Part shown: in pieces, positions 12,480-26,949 of the stretch
How the letters are laid out: each line of letters begins with the position of its first letter
Position numbering within the stretch: the stretch's first letter is position 1
NCBI RefSeq assembly: GCF_934196125.1
Contig: NZ_CAKPVT010000003.1
Direction: 5' to 3' (one strand)
DNA length: 64,000 bases
Source: an uncultured Streptococcus sp.
GTDB lineage: Bacteria; Bacillota; Bacilli; Lactobacillales; Streptococcaceae
Position numbers and translations under genes: made by a program
Notes under the pieces: model-generated
The model's input: only the letters and a program-made list of their open reading frames with translations
What the model was told of the DNA's origin: nothing
The model's database searches: none

Positions 12480-13694
12480 ATGAAAGTATTTGATAAATCT
12501 TCAAAGCTAGAACACGTTGCTTATGATATCAGAGGACCAATTCTTGACGAAGCTAACCGTATGATTGCTAACGGAGAAAAAATCTTGCGCCTTAATACTG
12601 GTAACCCAGCTGAATTCGGCTTTACAGCACCAGACGAAGTCATTCGAGACTTGATTGCCAATGTCCGCAATAGTGAAGCTTATTCAGATAGTAAAGGGAT
12701 TTTTTCTGCGCGTAAGGCAATTATGCAATATTGTCAGCTAAAAGGATTCCCACATGTGGATATTGATGATGTTTATCTAGGAAATGGTGTGTCTGAATTG
12801 ATTTCAATGTCTCTTCAGGCGCTTCTTGATGATAGCGATGAAGTCTTGGTGCCAATGCCTGATTACCCATTGTGGACAGCTTGTGTTAGCTTGGCGGGTG
12901 GTAATGCTGTTCATTATCTTTGTGATGAAAAAGCTAACTGGTATCCTGATATTGATGATATCAAATCAAAAATCACTTCTAACACAAAAGCGATTGTTGT
13001 GATTAACCCTAATAACCCAACAGGCGCTTTATACCCTGATGAGCTTCTTAAAGAAATTGTTGAAATTGCTCGTCAAAATGATTTGATTATCTTTGCTGAT
13101 GAAATCTATGATCGCTTGGTAATGGACGGCAACACACACACAGCAATTGCTAGCTTAGCACCAGATGTTTTCTGTGTGTCAATGAATGGTTTATCAAAAT
13201 CTCACCGAATCTGCGGTTTCCGTGTTGGTTGGATGGTCTTATCAGGTCCTAGAAATAATGTTAAAGGCTACATTGAAGGGCTTAATATGTTGGCAAATAT
13301 GCGCCTTTGCGCTAATGTCTTAGGTCAACATGTTGTTCAAACCTCACTTGGTGGCTATCAATCAGTTGATGAATTGTTGATTCCTGGTGGTCGAATTTAT
13401 GAACAACGTAACTTCATCTACAAAGCTGTCAATGACGTTCCAGGGCTTTCAGCTGTAAAACCAGACGCAGGACTTTACATTTTCCCTAAAATCGACCGTG
13501 AAATGTATCAGATTGATGATGACGAACAGTTCTGTTTGGAATTATTGAAACAAGAAAAAGTCATGTTGGTTCCTGGTAAAGGATTCAACTGGAAAGAACC
13601 AGACCACTTCCGTATCGTTTATCTACCACGTGTGGAAGAATTGGCAGAAGTTCAAGAAAAATTAACAAGAGTATTAAGTCAATATCGACGCTAA
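12480..13694 (+). CDS. PLP-dependent aminotransferase, AlaA/AlaT-like
   Basis: 404 aa class-I aminotransferase (NPNNPTG; SLSKS..CGFRVGW lysine motif). Conserved position upstream of codY. Confidence 0.85.
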   Translation: MKVFDKSSKLEHVAYDIRGPILDEANRMIANGEKILRLNTGNPAEFGFTAPDEVIRDLIANVRNSEAYSDSKGIFSARKAIMQYCQLKGFPHVDIDDVYLGNGVSELISMSLQALLDDSDEVLVPMPDYPLWTACVSLAGGNAVHYLCDEKANWYPDIDDIKSKITSNTKAIVVINPNNPTGALYPDELLKEIVEIARQNDLIIFADEIYDRLVMDGNTHTAIASLAPDVFCVSMNGLSKSHRICGFRVGWMVLSGPRNNVKGYIEGLNMLANMRLCANVLGQHVVQTSLGGYQSVDELLIPGGRIYEQRNFIYKAVNDVPGLSAVKPDAGLYIFPKIDREMYQIDDDEQFCLELLKQEKVMLVPGKGFNWKEPDHFRIVYLPRVEELAEVQEKLTRVLSQYRR

Positions 13695-13829
13695 AGAAAA
13701 AGTTATTAAAATGTTGGAAATTTGCAATTTGATTAAAAGATCAAGTGCAAAATCCGAACGTTTTAATGCTTTTTTTGATTAAAATCCGCTTAAAAAGAAT
13801 GCGTTTACAAAAATGTCGGAAGATAAAGG

Positions 13830-13844
13830 AATTTTCAGATAATT
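13830..13844 (+). promoter_or_regulatory. CodY box (AATTTTCAGATAATT; one mismatch to the AATTTTCWGAAAATT consensus) next to the codY promoter
   Basis: 14/15 match to the consensus, located 3 bp upstream of the -35 element. Confidence 0.55.
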
Positions 13845-13846
13845 GT

Positions 13847-13875
13847 TTGCAAAATAAGAATTCCTTTGATATAAT
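13847..13875 (+). promoter_or_regulatory. Sigma-A promoter of codY: -35 TTGCAA, 17-bp spacer, -10 TATAAT
   Basis: Canonical hexamers at 13847-13852 and 13870-13875. The transcript would start about 13882, inside the tandem repeat. Confidence 0.5.
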
Positions 13876-13880
13876 TGTAA

Positions 13881-13958
13881 CGCAAATAACGCAAATAACG
13901 CAAATAACGCAAATAACGCAAATAACGCAAATAACGCAAATAACGCAAATAACGCAAA
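13881..13958 (+). repeat. Perfect 9-bp tandem repeat (CGCAAATAA) x about 8.7, forming the codY 5' UTR
   Basis: Eight identical units at 13881, 13890 ... 13944 plus a partial ninth. Ends 11 bp before the codY RBS aaggaag. Confidence 0.97.
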
Positions 13959-13969
13959 GGAAGTAGAAA

Positions 13970-14755
13970 ATGCCGAATTTATTAGAAAAAACACGAAAGA
14001 TTACATCAATTTTGCAACGCTCTATTGACAGCTTAGACACTGAATTGCCATATAACGCAATGGCTGCACAATTAGCTGATATCATTGATTGTAACTCTTG
14101 CATCATCAACGGAGGAGGTACCCTCCTTGGTTATGCAATGAAGTATAAAACAAATACTGACCGCGTAGAGGAATTCTTTGACGCTAAACAATTCCCAGAA
14201 AGCTATGTTAAAGCGGCTAGTCGTGTTTACGACACAGAGGCAAACTTGTCTGTGGATAATGAATTGACTATTTTCCCAGTAGAATCAAAAGACACCTACC
14301 CTGATGGCTTGACAACTATTGCGCCAATCTATGGTGGCGGTATGCGTCTAGGTTCTCTTATCATTTGGCGTAATGATAAAGAATTCTCAGAAGATGATTT
14401 GATTCTTGTTGAAATTGCCTCAACAGTAGTTGGTATCCAATTGCTTAATCTTCAAACTGAAAATCTTGAAGAAACTATTCGTAAACAAACAGCTGTTAAT
14501 ATGGCTATTAACACGCTATCTTACTCAGAAATGAAAGCTGTATCAGCTATTTTGGGTGAATTAGACGGTACAGAAGGTCGCTTAACTGCATCAGTTATTG
14601 CTGACCGCATTGGTATCACACGTTCAGTTATTGTTAATGCCCTACGTAAATTGGAATCTGCGGGGATTATCGAAAGTCGTTCATTGGGTATGAAAGGAAC
14701 TTACCTTAAAGTCATCAATGAAGGTATCTTCGATAAATTAAAGGAATATAATTAA
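13970..14755 (+). CDS. codY: GTP/BCAA-sensing pleiotropic transcriptional repressor CodY
   Basis: 261 aa with a GAF-like N-terminus and a C-terminal wHTH ([23 protein letters not shown]). Confidence 0.95.
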
Positions 14756-15303
14756 TGAAAAAAGCTCTTATTTCAATTGACTATACCTATGATTTTGTAG
14801 CAGATGATGGCAAGTTAACGGCTGGAAAGCCAGCACAAGCTATTGAAGAAGCTATTACGCATATCACCAAAGAAGCCTATGAAGCAGGGAATTATATCTT
14901 CTTTGCTATTGACGGTCACGATGAGGGGGATGATTTTCATCCAGAGACAAAATTGTTCCCACCTCATAATATCAAGGGAACAAGTGGTCGTGATTTATAT
15001 GGTCAGTTAGCTGATTTATATGCAGAAATCAAGGAAGATAGCAAAGTCTTTTGGTTGGATAAACGTCATTATTCAGCCTTTTCAGGGACGGATTTAGATA
15101 TTCGATTGCGTGAACGTCATGTGACAACTGTTGTATTGACAGGCGTTTTGACGGATATTTGTGTCCTTCATACAGCCATCGATGCTTACAATTTAGGATA
15201 TGATGTTGAAATTCCTGCGGAAGCAGTCGCGAGCTTAACAGAGGAAAATCATCAGTTTGCACTAAATCATTTTAAAAATGTCTTAGGTGCAAAGATTGTT
15301 TAA
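14755..15303 (+). CDS. Isochorismatase-family cysteine hydrolase (nicotinamidase/pyrazinamidase-like)
   Basis: 182 aa (ISIDYTYDF...VLTGVLTDICV). Start overlaps the codY stop. Conserved codY neighbour in streptococci. Confidence 0.8.
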   Translation: MKKALISIDYTYDFVADDGKLTAGKPAQAIEEAITHITKEAYEAGNYIFFAIDGHDEGDDFHPETKLFPPHNIKGTSGRDLYGQLADLYAEIKEDSKVFWLDKRHYSAFSGTDLDIRLRERHVTTVVLTGVLTDICVLHTAIDAYNLGYDVEIPAEAVASLTEENHQFALNHFKNVLGAKIV

Positions 15304-15305
15304 AA

Positions 15306-15336
15306 GCTTGGAAGAAGTGGTAGACCACTTCTTTTT
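15306..15336 (+). terminator. Rho-independent terminator
   Basis: GAAGAAGTGGT-agacc-ACCACTTCTTTTTT. Confidence 0.55.
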
Positions 15337-15425
15337 TCATGTTAAAGAGGCTTAAAATATGGTATAATTTTAAGGACTGTATTGTAATTTAGGTTACGAT
15401 TTAATTTAATCAAGGAGAGATAGAG

Positions 15426-15728
15426 ATGAAAATTTCTGAAGAAGAAGTTCGTCATGTGGCTGATTTGTCAAAATTGTCCTTTTCTGAAGAAGAAACAGCA
15501 GAATTTGCGACAACTTTGTCTAAAATTGTAGATATGATAGAACTCTTGAATGAAGTTGATACAGAGGGCGTCCCTGTAACGACAACAATGGCGGATCGTA
15601 AGACTGTTATGCGTGAAGATGTGGCAGTAGCTGGTGATGACCGTGATGAGCTCTTTAAAAATGTGCCTCAATCTGAAAATTACTATATTAAAGTTCCTGC
15701 TATCTTAGAGGACGGAGGAGATGCCTAA
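15426..15728 (+). CDS. gatC: Asp/Glu-tRNA amidotransferase subunit C
   Basis: 100 aa, [17 protein letters not shown]...; RBS aaggagag. Confidence 0.9.
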
Positions 15729-17194
15729 TGTCATTTAATACAAAATCAATTGATGAGTTGCACAATCTTCTTGTCAATAAAGAAATCTCAGCAGTTGAAT
15801 TAACAAAAGCAACACTTGAAGATATTAAAGAACGTGAAGCAGCTGTTGATTCATTCATCACTGTTTCTGAAGAAGCTGCGCTTGCACAAGCAAAAGCTAT
15901 CGATGAAAAAGGTGTCGATGCTGATAATGTGATGTCAGGGATTCCTTTGGCTGTTAAAGATAACATTTCAACACGTGGTATTTTAACAACAGCAGCGTCT
16001 AAAATGCTTTACAACTATGAACCCATTTTTGATGCAACTGCGGTTGAAAAACTTTACGGTAAGGATATGATTGTTGTCGGTAAAACAAATATGGACGAAT
16101 TTGCCATGGGTGGTTCAACTGAAACATCATACTTTAAGAAGACAAAAAATGCTTGGGATAATAGCAAAGTTCCTGGTGGCTCATCTGGTGGTTCTGCGGC
16201 AGCTGTTGCCTCAGGTCAAGTTCGTTTGGCATTAGGTTCTGATACTGGTGGTTCAATCCGCCAACCTGCAGCTTTTAATGGTGTTGTTGGTTTGAAACCA
16301 ACTTACGGACGTGTATCACGTTTTGGTTTGATTGCATTTGGTAGCTCACTTGACCAAATCGGCCCATTTTCTCAAACAGTTAAAGAAAATGCGCAATTGT
16401 TGAATGTGATTGCTGGTCATGATGCTAAAGATGCGACATCTTCTGACCGCGAAGTGGCTGATTTCACAGCTAAAATTGGTCAAGATATTAAAGGCATGAA
16501 AATTGCTTTGCCAAAAGAATATCTTGGTGAAGGTATCGACCCAGAAGTGAAAGAAACAATTCTTAAAGCGGCTAAACACTTTGAAAAACTTGGTGCAACG
16601 GTTGAGGAAGTTAGCCTTCCATACAGTAAATATGGCGTAGCGGTTTACTATATCATTGCTTCATCAGAAGCTTCTTCAAACTTGCAACGTTTTGACGGTA
16701 TTCGTTACGGTTACCGCACTGAAAACTACAACAATCTTGAAGATATTTACGTTAATACACGTAGCGAAGGTTTTGGTGATGAAGTGAAACGTCGTATCAT
16801 GCTTGGTACATTTAGCTTGTCATCAGGTTACTATGATGCTTACTTCAAAAAAGCTGGTCAAGTTCGTACATTGATTATTCGTGATTTTGAAAAAATCTTT
16901 GCGGATTATGATTTGATTTTAGGTCCAACTGTTCCAAGTGTAGCCTTTGGTTTGGATACCCTTAATCATGACCCTGTTGCTATGTATTTGGCAGATATTT
17001 TGACAATTCCTGTCAACTTGGCTGGGCTTCCAGGGATTTCAATTCCTGCTGGATTTGCTCAAGGGCTTCCAGTTGGTATGCAATTGATTGGTCCAAAATA
17101 CAGCGAAGAAACTATCTACCAAGCTGCAGCAGCCTTTGAAGCAACAACTGATTATCATAAACAACAACCGATTATTTTTGGAGGTGACAAATAA
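15728..17194 (+). CDS. gatA: Asp/Glu-tRNA amidotransferase subunit A
   Basis: 488 aa with the amidase signature ([12 protein letters not shown]). Start overlaps the gatC stop. Confidence 0.95.
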
Positions 17195-18636
17195 TGAACT
17201 TTGAAACAGTCATCGGGCTTGAAGTCCACGTTGAGTTAAATACAAATTCAAAGATTTTTTCACCGACATCAGCACATTTTGGTAATGAACAAAATGCCAA
17301 TACAAATGTTATCGACTGGTCATTCCCAGGTGTTCTTCCTGTGATGAATAAAGGTGTTATTGACGCTGGTATTAAAGCAGTCTTGGCGCTTAACATGGAT
17401 ATTCACCAAAATATGCACTTTGACCGTAAAAACTATTTCTATCCTGATAATCCAAAAGCTTACCAAATTTCACAATTTGATGAGCCAATTGGCTACAATG
17501 GTTGGATTGAAATTGAGCTTGAAGATGGCTCAACTAAGAAAATTCGTATCGAACGTGTTCATTTGGAAGAAGATGCTGGTAAAAATACTCACGGTACTGA
17601 TGGTTATTCTTATGTTGACCTTAACCGTCAAGGTGTGCCGTTGATTGAAATCGTTTCAGAAGCTGATATGCGTTCACCAGAAGAAGCTTATGCTTACTTA
17701 ACAGCTCTTAAAGAAGTCATCCAATACACTGGTATTTCTGACGTTAAAATGGAAGAAGGTTCTATGCGTGTGGATGCCAACATCTCTCTTCGTCCATATG
17801 GTCAAGAAGAATTTGGTGTGAAAGCTGAATTGAAAAACTTGAACTCATTTAACAACGTGCGTAAAGGGCTTATCTATGAGCAAAAACGCCAAGCACAAGT
17901 TCTTCGTTCAGGTGGTCAAATTCAACAAGAAACACGTCGTTATGATGAATCAACTGGTGAAACAATCTTGATGCGTGTTAAGGAAGGGGCATCAGATTAT
18001 CGTTATTTCCCAGAACCAGACTTACCACTTTACGAAGTGTCAGACGAATGGATTGAATCAGTTCGCAAAACATTGCCAGAATTTCCAAAAGACCGTCGTG
18101 CCAAATACGTCAATGAATTTGGTTTGACAGCTTATGATGCTGCGCAATTGACAGCAACGAAAGCAACATCTGATTTCTTTGAAAGTGCAGTTGCGCTTGG
18201 TGGTGATGCTAAACAAGTTTCTAACTGGTTGCAGGGTGAAGTTGCTCAATTCTTGAACAGCGAAAATAAGACACTTCCAGAAATCTTGTTAACACCTGAA
18301 AATCTTGTTGAAATGCTTGCTATCATTGCTGACGGCACTATTTCATCAAAAATTGCTAAGAAAGTCTTTCTTCATTTGGCTAAAAATGGTGGTTCTGCGC
18401 GTGAATACGTTGAAAAAGCTGGTTTGGTTCAAATTTCTGACCCTGCTGTGCTTATTCCGATTATCCACCAAGTCTTTGAGGACAATGAAGCTGCTGTTGC
18501 CGACTTCAAGTCTGGTAAACGTAATGCCGATAAAGCCTTCACTGGATTCTTGATGAAAGCCACAAAAGGTAAAGCAAACCCACAAGTTGCCCTTAAATTG
18601 TTGGCACAAGAGTTGGCAAAATTGAAAGAAGACTAG
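17194..18636 (+). CDS. gatB: Asp/Glu-tRNA amidotransferase subunit B
   Basis: 480 aa, [15 protein letters not shown]...; overlaps the gatA stop. Confidence 0.95.
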
Positions 18637-18704
18637 GGTAAAAAATCAACTTTTGAGCTAGCCTTTTGTTATGATAAATTAAGATAACAAGTTGGAGTTG
18701 ACAT

Positions 18705-26612: not shown

Positions 26613-26949
26613 AAATGCTATTCCCTTCTACGAAGTAGGAAAATGCTCATAAGCATCACCCCCTGAATAGCCAACCGCCATAAACTTACTACGTCAATTA
26701 GTATATCATAATTATAGGCCTAATTATTTTGCTGCTTTATCGGGATTTCTAATGGTGAAGGAAGATACAACTAGCTGTTTTTTACTGTTGAAATGACCCT
26801 CAACAGAAATATTGTACTTTCCATCTTGTAGCATTAACAGTAATGTCGTTAATTCAGGATTCACTACAATGCAATTATAAGATCGATGAATCGTTGTTAA
26901 CGCAAACCAGGAGTTCAAATTTTCTGATTATGCAGTCAACATCTAACAC

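Follow-up and report, generated by a model that had tools for sequence, protein, structure and literature searches.

The closest analogue by mechanism of the repeat described here is the (ATCTTTC)n tract of Haemophilus influenzae hmw1A, which is transcribed within the 5'-UTR and gives graded expression (PMC12721329, PMC8262952) that is inversely proportional to copy number (PMC8262952). The hmw system depends on a long hairpin, formed by the repeats and a G-rich arm and processed by RNase III (PMC12721329). Within the genus Streptococcus, intergenic VNTRs of group A Streptococcus control downstream genes and regulators are the largest VNTR-bearing class (PMC6193603), and a polymorphic homopolymer adjoining the regulator gene Spy1337 (Spy1336/R28-Spy1337) alters transcript levels and virulence (PMC7098570). 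As to the regulator considered here, codY promoters contain CodY boxes (consensus in PMC9096947), and experiments in L. lactis, S. pneumoniae and S. pyogenes have demonstrated that codY is autoregulated (PMC9318921). We found no paper in the open-access literature on a repeat in a codY leader or on CodY in the S. gallolyticus group.

In the window, by which we mean the whole 64-kb stretch of Streptococcus DNA that was analysed, codY is preceded by a tandem array of the unit TAACGCAAA, situated between a CodY box/-35/TG-extended -10 module and the codY Shine-Dalgarno (SD) sequence (Table 1). Tandem Repeats Finder (TRF) describes it with a period of 9, 9.0 copies, 100 % matches and a score of 162, which makes it by far the top tandem repeat of the window, all others having at most 5 copies and scores of at most 62. 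The periodic tract measures 81 bp and comprises nine perfect units; read in the phase CGCAAATAA it gives 8.67 copies, in agreement with the original prediction of 8.7 copies of a 9-bp unit. Only 11 nt separate the end of the array from the codY ATG, and the final AAA of the array is part of the SD sequence AAAGGAAG. Outside the array the unit is almost absent from the 64 kb, with a single copy at 26898. Near this lone copy lies a match to the Listeria sRNA rli28 (RF01492; 26543-26715, minus strand; 54.7 bits against a gathering score of 45), the sole Rfam family above threshold in the 64 kb.

Table 1. Features of the codY locus, in order of position in the window.
Feature	Position	Strand	Basis and remarks
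PLP-dependent aminotransferase gene	12480-13694		Upstream of codY
Long hairpin rich in A/U with a terminal U-run, probable intrinsic terminator of the aminotransferase gene	13695-13776	+	Fold
cre-like (CcpA-type) motif TTGTAAACGCATTCT	13796-13810	-	Sole exact WTGNAANCGNWNNCW match of the window; chance expectation 1.5
CodY box AATTTTCAGATAATT, putative operator	13830-13844	+	1 mismatch to consensus AATTTTCWGAAAATT; about -52 to -38 from the predicted +1
-35 hexamer TTGCAA	13847-13852	+	Promoter scan, 10/12 match with 17-nt spacer; TTGCaa conserved genus-wide
TG-extended -10 TGATATAAT	13867-13875	+	TATAAT 13870-13875, TG 13867-13868; TGnTATAAT conserved in almost all of 80 species
Perfect tandem array (TAACGCAAA)9	13878-13958	+	TRF; predicted +1 (about 13880-13882) in unit 1; last unit gives the AAA of the SD
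Shine-Dalgarno AAAGGAAG, 6 nt ahead of ATG	13956-13963	+	Sequence; predicted accessibility 0.58-0.64 at any copy number
codY, 261 aa	13970-14755	+	TIGR02787 E = 5e-122, NF003170 E = 7e-116
Isochorismatase-family hydrolase gene (nicotinamidase-like), second cistron	14755-15303	+	PF00857; start overlaps codY stop (TAATG)
Intrinsic terminator closing the codY-isochorismatase unit	15310-15335	+	11-bp stem, 4-nt loop, T-run; fold

The array shares with hmw1A and hmw2A that it is a perfect tandem repeat of intermediate size between promoter and start codon, within what would be the transcribed leader, and that its copy number is polymorphic between strains; polymorphism within a strain and graded output are features of hmw. 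As in VNTR contingency loci, the tract is perfect and head-to-tail, all units being perfect in alleles of up to 11 copies, and it occupies an expression-relevant position between the conserved -10 and the SD sequence, where it is expected to be transcribed. The group A Streptococcus loci resemble it in being slippage-prone, non-coding repeats of the same genus that adjoin a regulator gene and are highly polymorphic in nature (PMC6193603, PMC7098570). Those loci, however, are mononucleotide tracts or promoter and intergenic repeats with measured effects on transcripts and virulence, whereas the codY array has a 9-bp unit and lies wholly downstream of the -10, in the leader. The codY leader is a case of repeat-mediated variation in non-coding DNA upstream of regulators. 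What sets it apart is its gene, which encodes a regulator at the core of metabolism whose control region is otherwise invariant, and the fact that no structural mechanism is apparent.

The control region upstream of the array resembles that of CodY-autoregulated codY promoters, both in the closeness of the CodY box to the 15-bp consensus AATTTTCWGAAAATT and in its location, the box ending 2 nt ahead of the -35. AATTTTCAGATAATT is the only match with at most one mismatch in the window; yet boxes with up to two mismatches occur at chance level in this AT-rich DNA (2 found against 2.2 expected), so that the box is statistically not compelling by itself and becomes so through its conservation. We compared 80 codY loci from about 80 Streptococcus species, and in all 80 a box with at most two mismatches (none in 6 loci, one in 66) lies 24-26 nt upstream of a TG-extended -10. 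A footprint conserved at fixed spacing throughout the genus supports the assignment of operator and promoter, and the CodY box abutting TTGCAA-17-TATAAT that had been proposed from the window is thus a module common to all 80 species, with the geometry of the autoregulated codY promoters of Lactococcus and Streptococcus, in which the box lies directly upstream of the -35. The autoregulation read from the box in the original prediction accords with this conservation and with the experimental work in the three species named above; CodY would then repress codY here, too, in a branched-chain amino acid-dependent manner. About 20 nt upstream of the CodY box lies the cre-like motif. Although its sequence carries substitutions (TTGTAAGCGGATACT, TTGTAAGCGCATACT and others), its position is kept in 8/8 codY loci of the S. 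bovis/equinus complex (SBSEC), a hint that CcpA may act on codY in these species.

It is the stretch downstream of this module that departs from the canonical codY promoter. The -10 and the ATG lie 26-43 nt apart in 78 of the 80 species and 31 nt apart in every SBSEC reference, as against 94 nt in the window, which makes the window leader an outlier in the genus and bears out the original view that a leader built from repeats is unusual; in the lineage of the window the distance is 94 nt or more by virtue of a variable repeat. Just two further codY leaders in the set of 80 species are long, those of L051 and L053 (S. raffinosi, Hadza-gut MAG), with 85 nt between -10 and ATG. This sequence of about 85 nt upstream of the codY ATG is non-repetitive and G+C-richer, and these leaders were therefore elongated independently by a different route.

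The boundaries of the transcription unit follow from the predicted terminators. The region 13690-13800, downstream of the aminotransferase gene, folds with a dG of -30.4 kcal/mol (z = -5.87; none of 200 shuffles was equally stable), and this hairpin probably isolates codY transcription as the terminator of the aminotransferase gene. Its 3' arm contains a T-run (13770-13776) that has 7, 8 or 9 T among the conspecific sequences described below (L005, L009, L127, L129). Downstream, the overlapping codY and isochorismatase cistrons are closed by a second terminator, after which gatCAB follows outside the unit. Since terminators bound the unit and its cistrons overlap, the array is placed in the leader of a bicistronic codY-isochorismatase transcript with a promoter of its own. 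Moreover, the 11 nt between array and ATG and the lack of a usable -10 in the unit imply that codY mRNA must start at or upstream of the array. The transcript would then consist mostly of repeats up to the ribosome-binding site, as originally proposed.

We regard it as very improbable that the true codY promoter lies elsewhere and that the array, instead of being transcribed as a leader, is an ordinary intergenic microsatellite or a promoter-spacing element. What could be said for it is that one streptococcal data set examined, the annotation supplements of S. pneumoniae D39, contains no mapped codY transcription start; the codY promoter is not addressed in the GBS and S. salivarius CodY papers. 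Against it, the space downstream of the array leaves no room for a promoter, being 11 nt long and overlapped by the SD sequence, no -10-like hexamer was found in the repeat unit (the best, AATAAC, matches at 4/6), the promoter scan found no promoter inside the array, the promoter upstream is conserved in 80/80 species, and the gene that precedes codY is followed by a strong terminator.

Open reading frames across the array were likewise considered and rejected. The plus-strand frame 13745-13966 (TQITQ...) is no upstream ORF or leader peptide, given that it starts upstream of the promoter, within the terminator hairpin; nor is it a gene, as the T7/T8/T9 indel among strains changes its frame and the predicted leader has no start codon. 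The minus-strand frames over the array are stop-free artefacts of the 9-bp unit. A public gene call in L127 (1518-1712, 64 aa) corresponds to the plus-strand frame 13745-13966 of the window, which passes through the repeat units without a stop. Artefactual read-through ORFs of this kind lengthen with copy number and may populate protein databases.

The hypermutability that had been predicted from the perfection of the array is evident from its variation among close relatives. Contigs were collected by exact-protein look-ups (CodY, isochorismatase and aminotransferase) and by scanning metagenomes for the -10 together with the first unit, and 24 sequences including the window were treated as conspecific, their flanks being at most 0.5 % divergent (0-7 SNPs per 1398 bp upstream). 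Among these 24 we counted 2 copies in six, 3 in one, 4 in four, and 6, 9 (the window) and 11 in one each; nearly all comparison sequences are short-read metagenome assemblies, in which long alleles are incomplete and heterogeneity within a sample is invisible, and the remaining 10 were broken in the array. These 10 contigs or scaffolds, which end or are gap-filled there, show at least 3 (three), at least 6 (one), at least 7 (three) and at least 8 units (three). All visible units are perfect in the conspecific alleles, while promoter and operator are invariant. Two sequences, L006 and L133, have no SNP in 2743 bp of flank and yet carry at least 8 and 4 copies, respectively, so that the array mutates faster than SNPs accumulate; similarly, L003 (2 copies) and L008 (3 copies) are one SNP apart. 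Every group of flank haplotypes holds both 2-copy and expanded alleles, copy number being independent of haplotype. A range of 2 to at least 11 copies among genomes this close is what is seen at VNTR contingency loci. It had been suggested that an identical copy number in all related genomes, together with a transcription start downstream of the repeat, would point to a neutral intergenic microsatellite; copy number is in fact not identical.

Could these differences be artefacts of repeat collapse or mis-assembly? Ten assemblies are indeed broken or gap-filled with a fixed 100 N in the array, but reads and k-mers exceed the 18-54 bp of arrays with 2-6 units, which are found in long contigs with unique flanks, independent samples and assemblers yielded the alleles of 2, 3, 4, 6, 9 and 11 units, and the breaks are located where long arrays should cause them. 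We therefore give an artefact the least credence of all explanations considered. The breaks fall in the array because short k-mers cannot bridge a long perfect repeat: Logan contigs end within 4 units and the SPAdes contig L135 after 7, and the k119 contig L134 spans 11. Assemblies that end or are scaffold-gapped exactly at the array, with aminotransferase and codY on separate contigs, include L134-L139, L121, L002, L006, L129 and L132. As every scaffold gap is a fixed 100 N, the longest alleles cannot be sized from the gaps.

Outside the lineage of the window the leader is nearly uniform. Seven contigs with the same AAGAATT flank were assigned to a sister taxon, as they are about 4-5 % divergent; six of them have 2 copies. 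The seventh (L116, SKFA01000004.1) has 3, which indicates low-level slippage outside the window lineage too. Further SBSEC sequences, namely 24 metagenome contigs and 7 reference genomes, all have 2 copies. In this non-random sample, drawn from exact-protein look-ups and with some contigs from the same studies, expanded alleles thus make up 18 of the 24 conspecific sequences but only 1 of 38 from other SBSEC (Fisher p = 1.2e-9).

In a comparison over 3.8 kb the locus shows 95.5-97.5 % identity to sequences from the S. gallolyticus clade and 87-89 % to S. equinus, S. infantarius and S. vicugnae; the 90 % cluster of the neighbouring GDPD protein is mostly S. gallolyticus, and CodY is not above 98 % identical to that of any reference genome. 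We therefore assign the window to a lineage of its own in the S. gallolyticus clade of the SBSEC, so far known from metagenome assemblies. In 7/7 SBSEC reference genomes the leader reads TATAATTG-TAACGCAAA-TAACGCAAA-GGAAGTAGAAAATG, with exactly two units. A degenerate version is found in S. alactolyticus and in species of the pyogenic group (TAACGCAACTAAAGCAAAGGA; TAACGCAAATAAgtCAAAGGA), and a degenerate TAACGCAAATAAnnCAAAGGA in more distant species. As the SBSEC has two units and other species degenerate ones, the array likely arose as an expansion of the ancestral two-unit direct repeat of a normal short leader. A MAG labelled 'Oribacterium sp.' (L011, CAVAFU010000044.1) contains an SBSEC-type codY locus with 98 % CodY identity and 89 % DNA identity to the window and a degenerate second unit (TAACGCAAATAATGCAAA); its label is probably due to binning contamination.

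What, then, does a change in copy number alter? Assuming that the +1 lies 5-7 nt past the -10, the leader would measure roughly 25-28 nt with 2 units, 88-91 nt with 9 and 106-109 nt with 11. The original prediction held that copy number would change the length of the 5'-UTR, the spacing between the operator/promoter and the ribosome-binding site, and possibly mRNA stability. Operator-promoter geometry cannot be altered by the array, as this lies downstream of the -10, and only the length of the 5'-UTR changes. Nor did the leader reveal features of a riboswitch, T-box or leader-peptide attenuator. It is less well folded than 200/200 shuffles (z = +2.54), and no Rfam match with E<0.3 was found in 13600-14300, so that a structured leader or known RNA family was rejected. 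The repeat by itself has an MFE of -1.9 kcal/mol and is predicted to be about 80 % unpaired, SD accessibility is predicted to remain at 0.58-0.64 over 1-20 units, and the predicted leader contains no ATG, GTG or TTG. Rho-dependent attenuation on a long, unstructured leader with C>G was set aside, as streptococci are not known to have Rho.

It is at this level that the comparison with hmw breaks down. The hmw repeats are the left arm of the hairpin cleaved by RNase III, whereas the codY leader is predicted to be unstructured and has no complementary arm, the longest exact complement to the repeat in the codY-to-gatB region (13959-18700) being 8 nt and 4 kb off; an hmw-like hairpin partner was accordingly rejected. 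Furthermore, hmw encodes a surface adhesin under immune selection and carries at least 11 repeats in nature, while codY encodes a global regulator that resides in the cytoplasm and is expected to act as repressor of codY itself, and the ancestral state of its leader is two units.

The repeat could act through something that binds it, i.e. the TAACGCAAA units, as DNA or RNA, could recruit or titrate a protein or small RNA and so act as roadblock, sponge or additional operator. A series of nine identical sites at regular distances would lend itself to cooperative binding, and the unit is conserved as the core of the leader across the SBSEC, being degenerate in pyogenic-group species. Still, we consider a binding platform improbable. 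A second CodY operator in the array was rejected, the best match having 6 mismatches, and cre, DnaA-box and PurR-box patterns found no match in the array; the near-absence of the unit elsewhere in the 64 kb, the lack of an Rfam family and the prevalence of 2 copies elsewhere, which shows that multiplicity is not a conserved requirement, argue in the same direction. With SD, SD-AUG spacing, operator and promoter fixed, and with neither structure nor motif, leader length is left as the only variable.

Taken together, our preferred reading, to which we would assign a probability of roughly 55 %, is that the array is a VNTR driven by slippage in the transcribed leader of codY, with an effect that is near-neutral or that of a weak, buffered rheostat. 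Slipped-strand mispairing would expand and contract (TAACGCAAA)n in the 5' leader of the bicistronic codY-isochorismatase operon, with transcription starting in the first repeat unit and the last unit contributing to the SD sequence. From an ancestral leader of two units, an array of 2 to at least 11 units would have formed, changing faster than SNPs in its flanks. Copy number would alter nothing but the length of an A-rich, unstructured leader without a start codon, which would range from about 25 nt up to 106 nt or more. Because it changes length only, any effect should arise after transcription and be graded, by way of mRNA decay or the loading of ribosomes. In Firmicutes, an mRNA with a longer bare 5' segment could become accessible to RNase Y or RNase J; a long leader could equally serve as a standby platform for ribosomes. 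The direction of any effect on expression is not predictable. Negative autoregulation by CodY would damp or partly compensate whatever effect there is, and the most likely phenotype is thus near-neutral to a weak rheostat on CodY dosage.

A more ambitious explanation, which we hold to be possible but clearly less probable than a near-neutral or weakly buffered VNTR, is that of an adaptive contingency or rheostat locus. Repeat number would set CodY dosage via leader-length-dependent mRNA decay or ribosome loading, giving rise to heritable and reversible differences between strains or cells in the threshold of nutrient limitation for the CodY regulon, with selection keeping the tract unstable. 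The abundance of expanded alleles in the conspecific set, on several flank haplotypes, against a single case among SBSEC sequences with the same two-unit seed, can be cited in its favour, and the 75 % of expanded conspecific alleles could reflect selection instead of drift. The strong conservation of a short leader in 78/80 species likewise implies that length matters; it suggests that leader length is under constraint and that expansions may be non-neutral. Precedents exist in the graded output of the hmw1A repeat and in the group A Streptococcus VNTRs and homopolymer introduced above. On the other hand, the repeat offers no structure, partner sequence, uORF or binding motif as a mechanistic handle, predicted SD accessibility is independent of copy number, and negative autoregulation should even out shifts in dosage. 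A single ancestral expansion that made the tract unstable in a length-dependent manner, contraction to 2 units then being a quasi-absorbing state, can also account for the surplus of expanded alleles. Somewhat more doubtful still is the specific form of the idea in which UTR length alone, with no hairpin, uORF or operator change, moves the derepression threshold of the CodY regulon and provides metabolic bet-hedging in a gut commensal.

On the practical side, the array is a ready strain-typing marker and, at the same time, a recurrent break point for short-read assemblies of this taxon. Its biological interest lies in the gene that it precedes. CodY couples the availability of branched-chain amino acids to hundreds of metabolic and colonisation genes in Firmicutes, and codY expression is normally under a rigidly conserved promoter, operator and short leader; here, the length of that leader varies up to about four-fold among strains that are otherwise nearly identical. 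The alleles form a natural series that could reveal how 5'-UTR length affects the fate of Gram-positive mRNA and how far autoregulation buffers it. If the repeat does alter CodY dosage, a central metabolic regulator would join the genes varied by repeats, which so far have mostly been those for surface antigens and virulence regulators.
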